Of a stretch of 64,000 nucleotides of DNA, positions 5,692-51,077 are shown in pieces. The notes beneath the pieces were generated by a model, which saw only the letters and a list, made by a program, of their open reading frames with translations, did not search any database and was not told the DNA's origin. Origin of the DNA: Paracoccaceae bacterium. GTDB lineage: Bacteria > Pseudomonadota > Alphaproteobacteria > Rhodobacterales > Rhodobacteraceae. The stretch covers positions 6,249-70,248 of the forward strand of contig JBDHSQ010000003.1 in assembly GCA_039808285.1 (NCBI GenBank). The letters run 5' to 3'. The first letter of the stretch is position 1, and every line of letters starts with the position of its first letter. The position numbers and the translations under genes are program-made.

Positions 5692-6876
5692 ATGACCGAC
5701 CAGAGCCCCAGCGCCCCGATCACCCAGGACGTGGTGACGATTGCCCGCCGCCTTCCCGAAGGCGGACGGGTGAATCTTGTCGGCCTCACCCGTGACCAGT
5801 TCCGCGACGCGCTCGTCGCCGCAGGCACGCCCGAAAAGCAGGCCAAAATGCGGGTGGGCCAGATCTGGCAGTGGATCTACCACTGGGGCGTGCGCGACTT
5901 TGCCGCGATGACCAACCTTGCCAAGGAGTACCGGGCGATGCTGGCCGAACGGTTCGAGATCGCCCTGCCCGAGGTGGTGGCGCGGCAGGTCTCGGCCGAC
6001 GGAACCCGCAAGTATCTCCTGCGCATCGCCGGCGGGCACGAGGTGGAGACCGTCTACATCCCCGAGGAAAACCGCGGCACGCTCTGCATCTCGTCCCAGG
6101 TCGGCTGCACGCTGACCTGTTCGTTCTGCCACACCGGGACGCAGAAGCTGGTCAGGAACCTGACGGCGGGCGAGATCGTCGGCCAGGTCATGGTCGCGCG
6201 CGACGACCTTGGCGAATGGCCGATACCGGGGGCGCCCAAGGACGAGACGCGGCTTGTCTCCAACGTCGTGCTGATGGGCATGGGCGAGCCGCTCTACAAT
6301 TTCGAGAACGTCCGCGATGCGATGGGCGTGGTGATGGACGGCGAGGGGCTTTCGCTGTCGCGCCGGCGGATCACGCTGTCGACCTCGGGCGTGGTGCCGG
6401 AGATCGCGCGGGCGGCCGAGGAGATCGGCTGCCTGCTGGCGGTCAGCTTCCATGCCACCACCGACGAGGTGCGCGACCGGCTGGTGCCGATCAACAAGCG
6501 CTGGAACATCGAGACGCTTCTGGGCGCGCTCAGGGACTACCCGCGGCTGTCGAACTCCGAACGCATCACGTTCGAGTATGTCATGCTGAAGGGCGTGAAC
6601 GACAGTGACGCCGACGCCCGCCGGCTGGTCAGGCTGATCGCCGGGATCCCGGCCAAGATCAACCTGATCCCCTTCAACGAATGGCCCGGCGCACCCTACG
6701 AGCGCAGCGACTGGGAGCGGATCGAGGCCTTCGCCGACATCATCTACAAGGCGGGCTATGCCAGCCCGATCCGCACGCCGCGGGGCGAGGACATCATGGC
6801 CGCCTGCGGGCAGCTCAAGTCCGCGACCGAGCGCGCCCGCAGGAACCGCGCGGCGCCCGCGGTACCGGAGGCCTGA
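5692..6876 (+). CDS. rlmN: 23S rRNA (adenine2503-C2)-methyltransferase / tRNA m2A37 methyltransferase, radical SAM
   Basis: 394 aa with the radical-SAM cluster motif [20 protein letters not shown] and the C-terminal ACGQL motif typical of RlmN. Confidence 0.95.
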
Positions 6877-11530: not shown

Positions 11531-13084
11531 TCAGCGGAAATAGATGTTGTAGTCGCGCCGGATCGCGGCATCGACCTGCGGGTCGATCTGCATCCCGGCC
11601 TTGTCGAGAATGTCGTTCTTCCTCTGGATCGCGCGGTCGAGCAGCATCGGCCGGTCGGCCTCCACCCATTCCTTCGGGCTCATCCGGTTGCCGAGCGTCG
11701 GATAGACGTATTCGGTCTGCATCAGCCTGAGCGTCTGGCCCGAGCCGAGGTAATGTCCCGGCCCGCCGAGGCAGACCTCCTTCATCGCCTCGATCGAGGT
11801 CGAATCCTCGGTCACGTCGATGCCGCGCACGCAGCGCAGCACCTGGCCGAGGATGTCGTCGCCGAGGACGAGACTTTCGAGGCAGAAACCGAGAAGCGAG
11901 GCGTGCATCCCCACCGCCTCGTAGACCATGTTGAGCCCGGAAAGCCCGGCCAGCACGTTGGTGATGCCCTGTTCCCAGCCCGCCTGCATGTCGGGCAGCT
12001 TGGAATCGGTGATCCCCGCCGCCGCGCCCCCGGGCAGGTTGTAGAACCGGTGCATCTGGGCACAGCCCGCGGTCAGCAGCGCCTGTTCCGCCGACCCGCC
12101 CGACATCGCCCCGGTGCGCAGGTCGGAGACGAAGGGCCAGGTGCCGAAGATCGCCGGATGTCCGGGCGACATGGCGTTGACGTAGACGACGCCGGCGAGG
12201 CATTCCGCCATCGCCTGCACGATCGTCAGGGCGATCGGCGCGGGCGAGGTGGCGCCGGCCTGCCCGGCGGAAAGCAGCAGGACCGGCATGCCGCCGCGCA
12301 CGCAATGCTCCATCGTGATGCAGCTTTCCTCGGCGAACTTCATCGGCGGCACGACGAAACAGTTGGAGTTGGAGACGAAGGGCCGCGCCCGCCACCTTTC
12401 CTCGCCGCCGGCGATGCGGTGGATCATGTCGAAGCAGGGCGCGACATGCGACGGGTCGCTGAACGAGGTTCCGACATGCTTGGTGGTGCCGGCACAGCAG
12501 GCATAGAGCGTGTTGAGGTCCATCTCGAGGTTGTCGGTCACGTCGCGGCAGACCATCGCGCGCTGGAAGAAGTGCACGTTGTCGAGCGCGTGGGTGATCC
12601 GCGCCGCGTCGTAGAGGTCCTGCGCGGTGGAATCGCGGTAGGTGTTGGTCGCCAGATCGACCACATGCACCGCCGCACCCGCCGTGCCGAAATGGACGTT
12701 GCTGCCGGTCAGGTGCAGGTCATGTTTGGGGTCACGGCCGAAGAGCGTGAGGTCGCGCGCGGCCAGCGCCAGCATGTCCTCCACCAGCGCGCGGGGAAAG
12801 CGGATGCGGCCGTCGTCGCCCTGCACCGCGCCGGCGCCGGTCAGGATCTCCACCCCCGACCTCGGCGCCTGGCTGAGCCCGATCACCTCCAGCGCCTCGA
12901 GTGCGGCGGCGTGGATGCGCGCCATGCCTGCCTCGGTCAGCGGCTTGTATTGCCCGCCCGGCAGCCCCGCCCGGATCGGCCTCAGCGCCTCGTCGAGCGG
13001 CGCCGCCCGGGCCGCCCGGCGTGCCTCGCGCCCACCCGCGCGGGCCGCGCGCCGGGGTTCACAGTTCAGGGCCTCTTCCGACAT
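11531..13084 (-). CDS. Trimethylamine methyltransferase (MttB) family protein, non-pyrrolysine type
   Basis: ATG at 13084. The 517-aa uninterrupted ORF has no in-frame TAG and shows MttB-superfamily similarity across its length. Substrate unknown. Confidence 0.8.
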   Translation of the reverse strand: MSEEALNCEPRRAARAGGREARRAARAAPLDEALRPIRAGLPGGQYKPLTEAGMARIHAAALEALEVIGLSQAPRSGVEILTGAGAVQGDDGRIRFPRALVEDMLALAARDLTLFGRDPKHDLHLTGSNVHFGTAGAAVHVVDLATNTYRDSTAQDLYDAARITHALDNVHFFQRAMVCRDVTDNLEMDLNTLYACCAGTTKHVGTSFSDPSHVAPCFDMIHRIAGGEERWRARPFVSNSNCFVVPPMKFAEESCITMEHCVRGGMPVLLLSAGQAGATSPAPIALTIVQAMAECLAGVVYVNAMSPGHPAIFGTWPFVSDLRTGAMSGGSAEQALLTAGCAQMHRFYNLPGGAAAGITDSKLPDMQAGWEQGITNVLAGLSGLNMVYEAVGMHASLLGFCLESLVLGDDILGQVLRCVRGIDVTEDSTSIEAMKEVCLGGPGHYLGSGQTLRLMQTEYVYPTLGNRMSPKEWVEADRPMLLDRAIQRKNDILDKAGMQIDPQVDAAIRRDYNIYFR

Positions 13085-13148
13085 CGTCTTCACCCGTTCC
13101 AAATATCCTCGGGGGGTCCGGGGGGGCAGACGGCCCCCCGGACGCTCT

Positions 13149-34800: not shown

Positions 34801-34849
34801 GTTCTTCTCCCTGCCGTCACACCCGACGGCGTTCGCGTTGCCTTGCTCG

Positions 34850-35040
34850 CATGGCCGGTCTCCTGACTCGCGGGTCTCAGCGGCTTTTCCGCCTTCCCGG
34901 GGCCGGTGCCCCAGTGGCATCTGGAAAGCCGCTCGCCGCTTACAGTCGCGGGGGCGGTTGAGGCTTCGGGTGCCGCCTTTGGTCCACCCTACCCCATTCC
35001 CGTTTCAGTCCGGGCGCTTTGCGCCTGCCGGACACCATAC
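34850..35040 (-). promoter_or_regulatory. Cobalamin (AdoCbl) riboswitch upstream of cbtB
   Basis: Conserved blocks on the minus strand: AAACGGGAA (34997-35005), CCCCCGCGACTGTAAG (34939-34954), GCCACTG (34912-34918), GGGAAGGC (34891-34898) and B12-box AGTCAGGAGACCGGCC (34853-34868). Confidence 0.9.
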
Positions 35041-35069
35041 GCCGCAACCTTCGGGCAATCGGCCGGCCG

Positions 35070-48398: not shown

Positions 48399-48494
48399 GG
48401 CAGTCCTTCCAACCAGGGGTCAGGGGGCGCCCGCGGGGACCGTGGCCTCGGTCCCGAGCCGGTTGCGGAACCCCCCGTCCGCCGTCACGTTTGC

Positions 48495-48695
48495 GCGCTG
48501 GCAGGTCTCCCGGCTCGCGGATGTCGGGGCGGTCTCGCCCCGGCGGCCCTCCCGCCTTCCCGGCTCTCGCCAGTGGCCTTGGGGAACCTCTCCGGTCACG
48601 GTCGCGGGGGCGGCTGCGCTTCGGCGATGGGCCCCGATGGGTCGCAAAGCCTGTCGCATTCCCTCTTCGCCTGTCCTAAGACAGGAACCAGCGCC
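48495..48695 (-). promoter_or_regulatory. Cobalamin (AdoCbl) riboswitch upstream of DUF1636-cobW-cobN
   Basis: Conserved blocks on the minus strand: AGAGGGAA (48659-48666), CCCCCGCGACCGTGAC (48595-48610), GCCACTG (48571-48577), GGGAAGGC (48554-48561) and B12-box AGCCGGGAGACCTGCC (48500-48515). P1 pairs GCGCTGG with CCAGCGC. Confidence 0.9.
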
Positions 48696-48723
48696 GCCTC
48701 ACCTGAGGCATGTGCCACCCCCT

Positions 48724-48744: not shown

Positions 48745-49377
48745 ATGTCCGACCCGAAACCGACCGATCCCGCGGAAGACGCCGCCCGTCATGCGCAGAA
48801 GATGGCCAAGAAGAAGGCCGCCCGCGACAAGATCATGGCGACAAAGGAGGGCGAGAAGGGCCTGATCATCGTCCATACCGGCGCGGGAAAGGGAAAAAGC
48901 TCGTCCGCCTTCGGAATGATTCTCCGCTGCATCGCCCACGGGATGCCCTGTGCCGTGGTGCAGTTCATCAAGGGCGCCTGGGACACCGGCGAGCGGCGGC
49001 TGATCGAGGGCCATTTCGGCGATCTTTGCCAGTTCCACGCGATGGGCGAGGGCTTCACCTGGGAGACGCAGGACAAGACCCGCGACATCGCCGCCGCCCG
49101 GCGCGGCTGGGAGAAGGCGAAGGAGCTGATCCGCGACGGACGCAACCGGATGGTGCTGCTCGACGAGATCAACATCGCGCTGCGCTACGATTACCTGCCC
49201 GTCGAGGAGGTGGTGGAGTTCCTCAGGGCCGAGAAGCCGGCGATGACCCATGTCGTCCTGACCGGGCGGAACGCCAAGGAGGAGCTGATCGAGCTTGCCG
49301 ATCTGGTGACCGAGATGACGCTGGTGAAGCACCCGTTCCGGTCGGGGATCAAGGGGCAGAAGGGCGTGGAGTTCTGA
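48745..49377 (+). CDS. cobO: Cob(I)yrinic acid a,c-diamide adenosyltransferase
   Basis: ATG at 48745 after GGAAGGG. GLIIVHTGAGKGKSSSAFGM P-loop and VLLDEINIALRY. 210 aa. Confidence 0.92.
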   Translation: MSDPKPTDPAEDAARHAQKMAKKKAARDKIMATKEGEKGLIIVHTGAGKGKSSSAFGMILRCIAHGMPCAVVQFIKGAWDTGERRLIEGHFGDLCQFHAMGEGFTWETQDKTRDIAAARRGWEKAKELIRDGRNRMVLLDEINIALRYDYLPVEEVVEFLRAEKPAMTHVVLTGRNAKEELIELADLVTEMTLVKHPFRSGIKGQKGVEF

Positions 49378-49383
49378 GCGCGA

Positions 49384-49419
49384 CCGGGGGCGCCGCCCCC
49401 GGACCCCCGGAGTATTTTA
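49384..49419 (+). terminator. GC-rich hairpin after cobO followed by a short T-run (weak intrinsic-terminator candidate)
   Basis: CCGGGGGCG-C-CGCCCCCGG at 49384-49402. The T-run (TATTTTA) is about 10 nt downstream rather than adjacent, so confidence is low. Confidence 0.3.
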
Positions 49420-49586
49420 ACCACAATGAAAGAAATGCCGCGTCAGAGTGCAGCCACGGTACAGGCGGGAGCGCCGATGACCGTCCACAGTGAAAGCATC
49501 CCGTTTCCCCGGAGCGATCCGCCCGAAACGGGATGCCGCTGCGGCGCCAGTGTCACCCGCCCTTTCATTGTGGTCCCAAATACTCC
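49409..49586 (+). ncRNA. Unclassified, highly structured 178-nt element in the cobO-cobQ spacer (candidate cis-regulatory leader RNA or intergenic palindromic/MITE-like repeat)
   Basis: Six nested perfect helices read by eye: 49409-17/49578-86 (9 bp), 49421-32/49562-73 (12 bp), 49464-69/49556-61 (6 bp), 49471-75/49543-47 (5 bp), 49496-507/49525-36 (12 bp) and 49510-13/49518-21 capped by GNRA loop GCGA. The ends are AT-rich. Confidence 0.45.
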
Positions 49587-49634
49587 CGCCGGCGGCTCCC
49601 GCACTCGCGGCAAGAGCGACATCGGGGGGGCCGG

Positions 49635-51077
49635 ATGACGGCGCTGATGATCCAGGGCTGCGGCTCGAACGTCGGCAAGTCGCTGATCGTCGCCGGGCTC
49701 TGTCGCGCCGCGCGGCGGCGGGGGCTGGCGGTCGCGCCGTTCAAGCCGCAGAACATGTCGAACAACGCCGCGGTGACGGTGGACGGGGGCGAAATCGGGC
49801 GGGCGCAGGCGTTGCAGGCGCTGGCCGCCGGAGTTGCGCCGCATACAGACATGAATCCGGTCCTCCTGAAGCCCGAGACGGATACCGGTGCCCAGGTGGT
49901 GGTGCAGGGCCGGCGGTCGGCGACCGTGCGCGCCAGGGAGTATCCCGCCCTGAAGGCACAGTTGATGGTGCCGGTGCTTGAAAGCTTCGGGCGGCTGAAG
50001 GCAGCCCATGATCTTGTCATCGTCGAGGGCGCGGGAAGCCCCGCCGAGGTCAACCTGCGCAAGGGCGACATCGCCAACATGGGGTTCGCCCGGGCCGCGG
50101 ACGTGCCGGTGGTGCTGGTGGGCGATATCGACCGGGGCGGCGTCATCGCCCAGATCGTCGGCACGCAGGCTGTGCTCGACCCCGGCGATGCGGCGATGAT
50201 CGAGGGGTTCGTCATCAACAAGTTCCGCGGTGACCCTTCGCTCTTCAGCGATGGCTACCGCCTGATCGAGGCGAAGACCGGGTGGCGCGGCTTCGGCGTC
50301 GTGCCGCATTTCGCGGTGGCGGCGAAGCTTCCGGCAGAAGACGCGCTCGACCTCGGACGCGGGGCGGGGGGTGGGCCGGTGAAGATCGCCTGCCTCGCGT
50401 TCAGCCGCATCGCCAATTTCGACGATCTCGACCCGCTGAAACTGGAACCCGCCGTGACGCTGACGATGGTCCGCGCCGGAGAGCCGATTCCCGGTGACGC
50501 GGCGCTGGTGATTCTGCCGGGGTCGAAGTCGACGCGCGGCGATCTCGCCTTCCTCCGGGCGCAGGGCTGGGACATCGACCTGTCGGCCCACGTGCGGCGG
50601 GGCGGGCATGTGCTTGGCATCTGCGGCGGCTACCAGATGCTCGGGCAGCGGATCGAAGATCCCGAGGGGCTTGAAGGCGCACCCGGCGTCACCGAGGCGC
50701 TGGGGCTTCTCGACCTCTCCACGGTCATGACCCCCGAGAAGCGGCTGACGCGAAGCACCGCCACCCATGCCGCGACCGGCGCGGCGATGGAGGGCTACGA
50801 GATCCATATCGGCCGCACCGAAGGGCCCGGCAGGGAACGGCCCTTCGCCTTCACAGCGGACGCGCCGGAGGGCGCCGTTTCGCCCGACGGCCGGATCATC
50901 GGCAGCTACCTGCACGGCATGTTCGCGGGCGATGCCTTCCGCTCGGCGTTCCTCGCCCGGCTCGGTGCCTCGGCGGCGGCACAGTACGGCGCCGAGGTGG
51001 AGGCCACGCTCGACGCGCTGGCCGACCACCTCGAGGCGCATCTCGATGTGGAGGGGCTTCTGGGGCTGGCACGCTGA
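49635..51077 (+). CDS. cobQ: Cobyric acid synthase
   Basis: ATG at 49635. [33 protein letters not shown] and a C-terminal GATase ([10 protein letters not shown]). 480 aa. Confidence 0.93.

Follow-up and report, generated by a model that had tools for sequence, protein, structure and literature searches.

A probable uncatalogued mosaic intergenic element carrying a small-RNA-like module between cobO and cobQ in a Paracoccaceae genome

An element with a stable predicted fold in the cobO-cobQ spacer

The DNA analysed here, referred to throughout as the window, is a 64-kb stretch from a Paracoccaceae bacterium in which the spacer between cobO (stop codon 49375-49377) and cobQ (ATG at 49635) contains a 178-nt element on the plus (sense) strand at 49409-49586, 48 nt upstream of cobQ. 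The CobO protein encoded in the window is 100% identical to that of an Albidovulum sp. An original prediction made from the window sequence had described the element as a series of nested helices with a GNRA-capped hairpin, and had offered as its possible identities a ligand-sensing leader of cobQ, a processed small RNA or a palindromic repeat resembling RIME elements or miniature inverted-repeat transposable elements (MITEs). Our comparisons make it very probable that the element is a dispersed mosaic repeat and not a cobQ riboswitch. The reading that we favor as a whole is that of an uncatalogued but widespread mosaic intergenic element, comparable to repetitive extragenic palindromic (REP) elements and to bacterial interspersed mosaic elements (BIMEs), which carries a small-RNA-like module with a proposed pairing and does not serve as a sensor for cobQ.

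The plus strand of the element is predicted to fold with -84.9 kcal/mol, as against -52.8 +/- 3.9 kcal/mol for dinucleotide shuffles (z-score -8.2; 0 of 200 shuffles as stable). The minus strand is nearly as stable (z-score -7.1), so that the fold alone gives no indication of the strand. All six complementarities of the original prediction were found where it had placed them:

49409-17/49578-86: helix 1 (outer), 9 of 9 positions complementary
49421-32/49562-73: helix 2, 12 of 12 positions complementary, extending to 13 bp with 49420/49574
49464-69/49556-61: helix 3, GGCGGG/CCCGCC
49471-75/49543-47: helix 4, GCGCC/GGCGC
49496-507/49525-36: 12-bp helix with the apex CGGA-GCGA-TCCG

The comparisons with relatives described below allow the spacer to be divided into the following parts:

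49384-49408, plus strand: 'type B' left flank, a GC hairpin CCGGGGGCG-C-CGCCCCCGG and then ACCCCC, beginning 6 nt past the cobO stop
49409-49432, plus strand: left repeat unit, comprising P1 (GGAGTATTT), the spacer TAA and box X (CCACAATGAAAG); P1 and spacer together read TTAACC
49433-49455, plus strand: variable linker
49456-49484, plus strand: core hairpin ACGGUACAGGCGGGAGCGCCGAUGACCGU, a conserved 29-nt local hairpin
49485-49496, plus strand: box X' (CCACAGTGAAAG), a direct repeat of X that differs by one A-to-G change
49496-49536, plus strand: GC-rich hairpin of 12 bp with a 4-bp apex, terminator-like in relatives
49537-49561, plus strand: GC-rich filler, not conserved and unalignable among orthologues, which supplies the 3' halves of helices 3 and 4
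49562-49586, minus strand: right repeat unit, inverted; the minus strand reads GGAGTATTT-GGGA-CCACAATGAAAG
49587-49602, minus strand: 'type A' right flank; the minus strand reads GCGGGAGCCGCCGGCG, in agreement with the consensus GGGAGCCTCCGGCG

The arms of the element are thus terminal inverted repeats of 24-25 nt with a 3- or 4-nt spacer between their complementary blocks. Besides the two copies of the box that pair in helix 2 there is a third, X' at 49485-49496, which the original prediction had overlooked; it is able to pair with 49562-49573 via one G.U. In the core hairpin a lower stem of 5 bp and an upper stem of 4 bp, the latter closed by a GGAG loop, are joined by 2 bp that an A bulge separates from the lower stem and a GA bulge from the upper one. 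No target-site duplication is present at the ends of the element (left ...GGACCCCC, that is ACCCCC; right CGCCGGCG..., that is CGCCGG), and its flanks belong instead to two recurrent flank types. A separate observation concerns a 20-nt direct repeat, 80% identical, which brackets the insertion at 49376-49395 (at the cobO stop) and 49614-49633 (just before the cobQ start). The idea of a long target duplication was set aside in favor of probable GC-rich chance; the repeat could be either such chance or a trace of the origin of the composite.

A dispersed unit and a low-copy inner module

The arms of the element define a unit of about 24 nt, comprising P1 (GGAGTATTT), 2-5 nt and a lineage-specific, purine-rich box X, which is non-palindromic and without GTAG. 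A scan of one genome per species with the exact pattern GGAGTATTT-N2-5-CCACARTGAAAG recovered 45 loci (loci are cited by L numbers), two of which are chance matches in Firmicutes. Only four scan loci resemble the whole 178-nt element (a composite, in what follows) and the remainder, about 39 single units, carry the ~24-nt unit alone. Defluviimonas denitrificans, an Albidovulum metagenome-assembled genome (MAG) and Rhodobacteraceae MAGs have about 8-10 exact units per genome, and arm sequences matching the unit also occur in Paracoccus. Units are preceded by one of two recurrent flanks, either the GC hairpin with ACCCCC or GGGAGCCTCCGGCG, also written GCCTCCGGCG. The former, with (A/G)CCCCC, precedes single units in L002, L003, L007-L009, L015, L021-L026, L112 and L114, while the type A flank recurs in L004, L005, L010-L012, L017, L018, L020, L027, L031, L037 and metagenome copies; the window element has the GC hairpin flank on its left and the GGGAGCCTCCGGCG-type flank, inverted, on its right. 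Units are also found as a minimal head-to-head palindrome (L019), an arrangement seen in the composites too, and as tail-to-tail pairs (L028, L038, L072, L074).

Single units fill short intergenic gaps, with the GC hairpin following the upstream stop codon. Box X lies 1-27 nt from a gene boundary in 35 of the 39: a gene start follows X after 7-23 nt in 17, the stop of a convergent gene after 1-27 nt in 16, and in 2 the boundary is called ambiguously as start and stop. On the opposite side the median distance to the nearest gene boundary is 37 nt. Orthologous gaps of several species keep the unit though the flanking bases have diverged. That single units act as promoters for the gene that follows was considered and rejected, because the start codons lie just 7-23 nt past X. 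We also observed that box X ends at its 3' side in GAAAG, often GAAAGG, and that in most cases with a downstream gene in the same orientation this end is located 7-12 nt before the start codon (L002-L045). As this GAAAG(G) is complementary to CCUUUC near the 3' end of 16S rRNA, the single unit may supply or overlap a ribosome-binding site.

The minus strand of the window carries one further single unit, at 13086-13140 between a stop codon and the next ATG. It consists of a GC hairpin, ACCCCCC, GAGGATATTT, GG and AACGGGTGAAGA; the box is unlike the one in the cobO-cobQ element and is similar to the 'type 2' box of Paracoccus pantotrophus. A distinct small palindrome, CCATTGGTTCTCGAACCAATGG, was seen inside or beside the GC hairpin preceding a unit in L113 (3655-3690) and L024 (about 6645-6675), and a related sequence, ...gatggcgcaccgatggacga..., precedes the unit in L040; this palindrome is absent from the window.

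The interior of the element has a different distribution. An invariant stretch, CCACGGTACAGGCGGGAGCGCCGATGACCGTCCACAGTGAAAGC, is common to five copies from four organisms, and a scan of metagenomes with an exact 20 nt of it returned 66 loci, about 50 of them true relatives; these come from samples of marine, soil and other origin, and their GC content is 47-74%. Their common layout begins with P1 (GAGTATTT), box X, a linker often containing TTAACC and the hairpin CGGUACAGGCGGGAGCGCCGAUGACCG, and continues with box X', the GC hairpin, the complement of X and the complement of P1. The sequence of X varies among lineages, and within each copy X, X' and the 3' box match one another. Single units on the same contig share the local X (L046, L077, L096/98, L105). 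In ten copies of the short-linker type, read by eye, TTAACC is constantly placed 32 nt before the core hairpin, and CGGTAC and a closing G are conserved outside the 20-mer used in the scan. In some members one or both arms are missing, leaving a -10-like box, then the core hairpin and X', and finally a clean terminator (L080, L066, L090, L104; the Cereibacter, Phaeobacter and Providencia plasmid copies).

Several of these copies display signals reminiscent of small-RNA genes. A TAnnnT box is situated 3-9 nt before the core hairpin in 12 of 40 non-redundant copies, while shuffled sequences average 4.0 and only 1 in 1000 reaches 12. The Providencia copy has TTGACG-16 nt-TAAGAT before the core, a compensated core hairpin and a terminator-like hairpin after X', and L080 combines TATAAT with a clean terminator. 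Runs of T follow the GC hairpin in L065, L067, L074, L080, L082 and L090, and a terminator is also present in L104.

The full element is low in copy number, with one copy in the window and two in D. denitrificans among the loci fetched. Paracoccus second replicons, which are filed as plasmids, have two composites each, and these replicons show 16-28 matches each with a 32-nt arm query, under an E-value cut-off which admits at most about 10 chance matches in the whole database. In P. pantotrophus the two composites have different boxes and the arm query from each matches many places; in P. denitrificans one type-2 arm match was examined and is a single unit that adjoins the end of a convergent gene. 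The module is known from Paracoccus denitrificans and Cereibacter sphaeroides. On conjugative plasmids of Cereibacter it is arm-less and located between DUF932/DUF945 and H-NS-family genes (L121 2495-2580; L118 1495-1575). In C. sphaeroides plasmid p.D an ISAs1 element lies between the module and the H-NS gene; it was considered as the transposase of the module and rejected as a later insertion, because it is missing in the C. azotoformans orthologue. A Phaeobacter plasmid has one module beside the plasmid iterons. Clinical NDM plasmids of Providencia rettgeri have the module just 3' of an integron integrase gene, beside a gamma-mobile-trio island:

L123 2985-3105, corresponding to p16Pre36-NDM, NZ_KX832927.1 140289-140409: Providencia copy, without the right arm

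The core had no match in viral contigs, and none was found in E. coli genomes.

An alignment of eight relatives, five of them from the cobO-cobQ spacer, was used as a test of the structure. Helices 3 and 4 of the original prediction were not borne out, being paired in only 57% and 47% of cells. In their place the local core hairpin is paired in 100% of cells with three pairs changed on both sides, and its inner stem is compensated as GGGA/UCCC in L113 and the Providencia copy (L123) and as GGCU/AGCC in Paracoccus (L117). The 12-bp hairpin is likewise paired in 100% of cells, with 6 of its 12 pairs compensatory, and on the plus strand it contains several U.G and no A.C pairs. The GNRA apex exists in the window as GCGA but is not a conserved feature, for it is GCAA in L115 and non-GNRA in others. 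Across 25 copies, a comparison between the 5' arm and the complement of the 3' arm yielded 28 plus-strand and 32 minus-strand wobble transitions along with 61 transversions, a symmetry which indicates that in their evolution the arms behave as DNA repeats do, favoring neither strand. The outer helices are two inverted copies of the dispersed unit, and the interior is a separate low-copy module. The same comparison of X' with the complement of the 3' box (25 copies) gave 27 plus-strand versus 1 minus-strand wobbles, mostly owing to one A-to-G position that distinguishes X' (..GWGAA..) from X (..AWGAA..). This constant change leaves pairing between X' and the 3' box possible only in plus-strand RNA.

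Composites occur in the cobO-cobQ spacer of D. denitrificans, of two MAGs (one from Paracoccaceae, one from Rhodobacteraceae) and of Defluviimonas sp. SAOS-178 (L016, L001, L115 and L113); in the last, the core has diverged and all three boxes contain another X. In Defluviimonas aquaemixtae and Defluviimonas sp. WL0002, where the spacer is 55 and 67 nt long, one unit stands alone immediately before the cobQ start (L112 and L114). Thus the position in this spacer, whose conservation among relatives had been proposed as a mark of functional RNA, is not fixed. Identity of the element among the cobO-cobQ genomes is 57-78%, versus 83-89% for the flanking coding DNA. Elsewhere relatives of the element adjoin unrelated genes in either orientation (recA/alaS, pdhA, pepN, RNase T2, an ABC transporter, H-NS), and ten annotated neighboring proteins are all housekeeping proteins. 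No transposase, recombinase or nuclease gene lies beside the composites among the loci whose neighbors were examined, no DEDD (IS110) recombinase adjoins any copy with annotated neighbors, and no autonomous insertion sequence (IS) with matching ends was seen in about 120 loci.

A search of Rfam 15 with the region 49300-49700, at the gathering cut-off and at E<=10, recovered no family matching the element, as the original prediction had required of a novel RNA, and 13 other copies together with the Providencia copy gave only noise.

Interpretation and competing explanations

Based on these observations we propose that the inner module may be, or derive from, a small-RNA gene, whose single-stranded X' would pair with the pyrimidine strand of the repeat family, namely its own 3' arm and the dispersed units abutting gene starts and ends. 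This pairing mechanism is tentative, unlike the classification of the element as a repeat. The copy in the window is most likely transcribed within the cobO-cobQ mRNA, where it would fold stably, since it lies in sense orientation and has no recognizable promoter or terminator tail. Its folded structure may affect processing or stability of the mRNA, though not in response to cobalamin. Of the identities initially suggested, the palindromic repeat came closest: the ends are indeed dispersed, as a search for scattered copies was expected to reveal for a repeat, but a many-copy MITE is not what is seen, because the full 178-nt element is low-copy. The suggestion of a processed small RNA holds in part, in that relatives possess the -10-like box, 5' hairpin and terminator, but the window copy has neither promoter nor U-tract.

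Several points weigh against the favored reading. No sigma-70-like promoter was detected in the window copy and its GC hairpin is not followed by a U-tract. The exact-match scan partly imposes the invariance of the 20-nt core and under-counts diverged copies, and the per-genome copy numbers are exact-pattern matches and BLAST place counts, not a full census. The plus-strand bias of X' is one conserved design feature and not many independent events, because nearly always the same position is concerned. Finally, a plain regulatory RNA does not explain why one X is found both in the module and in dozens of units, which hints at copying or mobility. Such upkeep of X resembles that in REPIN-RAYT systems, built around REP-associated tyrosine transposases (RAYTs), and in ssr9/ISPpu9, which leaves room for a mobile or guide-RNA mechanism.

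The likeness to REP/BIME and REPIN-RAYT systems is one of organization. Extragenic gaps harbor dispersed short units, either alone or arranged head-to-head or tail-to-tail; these form mosaics with other conserved linker motifs; their lineage-specific sequence is common to the copies of a genome; and a low-copy 'central' locus is flanked by inverted units. However, the P1-X unit is no GC palindrome with a 5' GTAG, its copy number is in the tens and not hundreds, and the locus between the inverted units is a ~110-nt RNA-like module and not a RAYT transposase gene. RIME1/2, reportedly described by Osteras et al. in 1995 as alphaproteobacterial intergenic mosaic elements of roughly 100-200 nt with large palindromes, are comparable as palindromic mosaics of Alphaproteobacteria, whereas here the element is hosted by Rhodobacterales and by plasmids from other groups.

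A purely selfish, non-autonomous mobile DNA of the MITE or REPIN kind, in which the arms are ends recognized by a transposase, the inner hairpins are DNA hairpins for single-strand transposition and there is no RNA function, would account for several of these observations. The arms evolve symmetrically as DNA inverted repeats do, presence varies at one locus among congeners, conjugative plasmids of Alpha- and Gammaproteobacteria carry copies, the box is particular to a lineage and common to all copies in a genome as in REP/RAYT populations, and minimal palindromes and back-to-back pairs exist (L019, L028, L038). Like MITEs, the element is small, non-coding and intergenic, with terminal inverted repeats and variable presence between relatives. 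We nonetheless regard this explanation as unlikely, for the full element is present in only 1-2 copies per replicon and only the short units are numerous; there is no visible target-site duplication, no transposase beside any composite examined and no parent IS found; and the ends, unlike those of MITEs, are also abundant single units. Moreover, the inner hairpins tolerate G.U on one strand only, promoter- and terminator-like signals surround the core in many copies, and orthologous single units are kept across species while their flanks diverge.

An extension of the small-RNA reading, which we offer as speculation of doubtful standing, is that X' might guide the RNA to the host's own P1-X units, the invariant GAGTATTT serving as an adjacent motif that stays fixed. 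The system would then be an RNA-centered counterpart of REPIN-RAYT, in which the RNA would regulate the genes abutting units or direct the copying or maintenance of units, and the module would spread between chromosomes and plasmids of Alpha- and Gammaproteobacteria. A related but improbable alternative places such a guide-type RNA in a mobile or recombination system, X' targeting the units and P1 again being the fixed adjacent motif, by analogy with orphan ssr9 modules. In Pseudomonas putida ssr9, associated with ISPpu9 of the IS110 family, is a small-RNA gene bounded by short conserved boxes; its low-copy, stand-alone copies lie inside REP sequences, and it has been proposed as a selfish module that the ISPpu9 transposase moves in trans (PMC12288879). 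Our module is similarly low-copy, small-RNA-like and associated with repeats, but it has no sequence similarity to ssr9 and there is no IS110 transposase near any copy seen. In favor of targeting, besides this precedent, X' matches the X of the dispersed units of the genome in every lineage examined while P1 is constant, and in P. pantotrophus each of the two differing boxes has its own many matching places. Against it, no recombinase or nuclease gene adjoins the module in any locus examined, and the relation of the boxes could equally reflect shared ancestry of the copies.

It is still less probable that the element is merely structural punctuation of the BIME kind, acting in cis on the cobO/cobQ transcripts as a protein-binding site, bidirectional terminator or mRNA-stabilizing hairpin. 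This would agree with units filling short gaps, with the GC hairpin after the stop and GAAAG(G) 7-12 nt before the next start, with the very stable fold on both strands and with a weak terminator-like site on the minus strand at 49454-49437. It leaves unexplained the near-invariant core hairpin across distant lineages and plasmids, the constant relation of X and X', and the arm-less copies with their own -10 box and terminator.

The window contains two canonical cobalamin riboswitches elsewhere, as had been noted originally, which score 110 and 80 bits in Rfam:

34836-35054, minus strand: cobalamin riboswitch (Rfam)
48483-48707, minus strand: cobalamin riboswitch (Rfam), facing DUF1636-cobW-cobN and divergent from cobO

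Given the divergent direction of the latter, the cobO-cobQ transcript has no recognizable riboswitch. The idea that the element itself is a new or divergent riboswitch or leader sensing a corrinoid-pathway ligand for cobQ, suggested by its place in the cobalamin biosynthesis cluster on the sense strand 48 nt upstream of cobQ, by its strong fold and by the retention of the composite in the cobO-cobQ spacer of at least five related genomes, is contradicted by the comparative data and can be given hardly any credence: the element is missing from this spacer in two congeners (D. aquaemixtae and WL0002), its relatives lie beside unrelated genes, antisense and on plasmids and are not tied to cobalamin genes, two of the five helices (3 and 4) are not conserved, and, as the original prediction had already stated, it has no B12 box, with no match to RF00174 even at E<=10.

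The favored reading of a mosaic repeat with a small-RNA-like module removes a false riboswitch candidate from the annotation of a cobalamin operon, and illustrates how an apparent multi-helix RNA can arise from inverted copies of a dispersed repeat. It also brings to light a conserved hairpin module of ~30 nt, new to Rfam, in model organisms and in clinical Providencia NDM plasmids, the variable box of which always matches the repeat family of its host. If expressed, the module would tie a small RNA to a REP-like repeat population.

Other searches and minor observations

ARAGORN reported nothing on the element, and the box, end and core strings were met in the literature only in unrelated primers and sequences. 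The core sequence is not in the supplements of the P. denitrificans small-RNA catalogue, and the RepRanger paper has no Rhodobacterales entry. Several further identities were dropped by eye, as the element has no matching conserved features and no Rfam match for them: a hammerhead-like motif (CUGAUGA/GAAA), group II domain V, a K-turn or sarcin-ricin motif, a retron msr/msd, and a single-strand origin or Frpo-type promoter in single-stranded DNA.

In a different part of the window, at 11914-12013 of the minus strand, the Rfam search returned a match to PYLIS_3, the mttB pyrrolysine insertion sequence (50.6 bits versus a gathering score of 38). For a Rhodobacterales genome such a match is surprising, and a coding sequence of the mttB family may be all that lies behind it.

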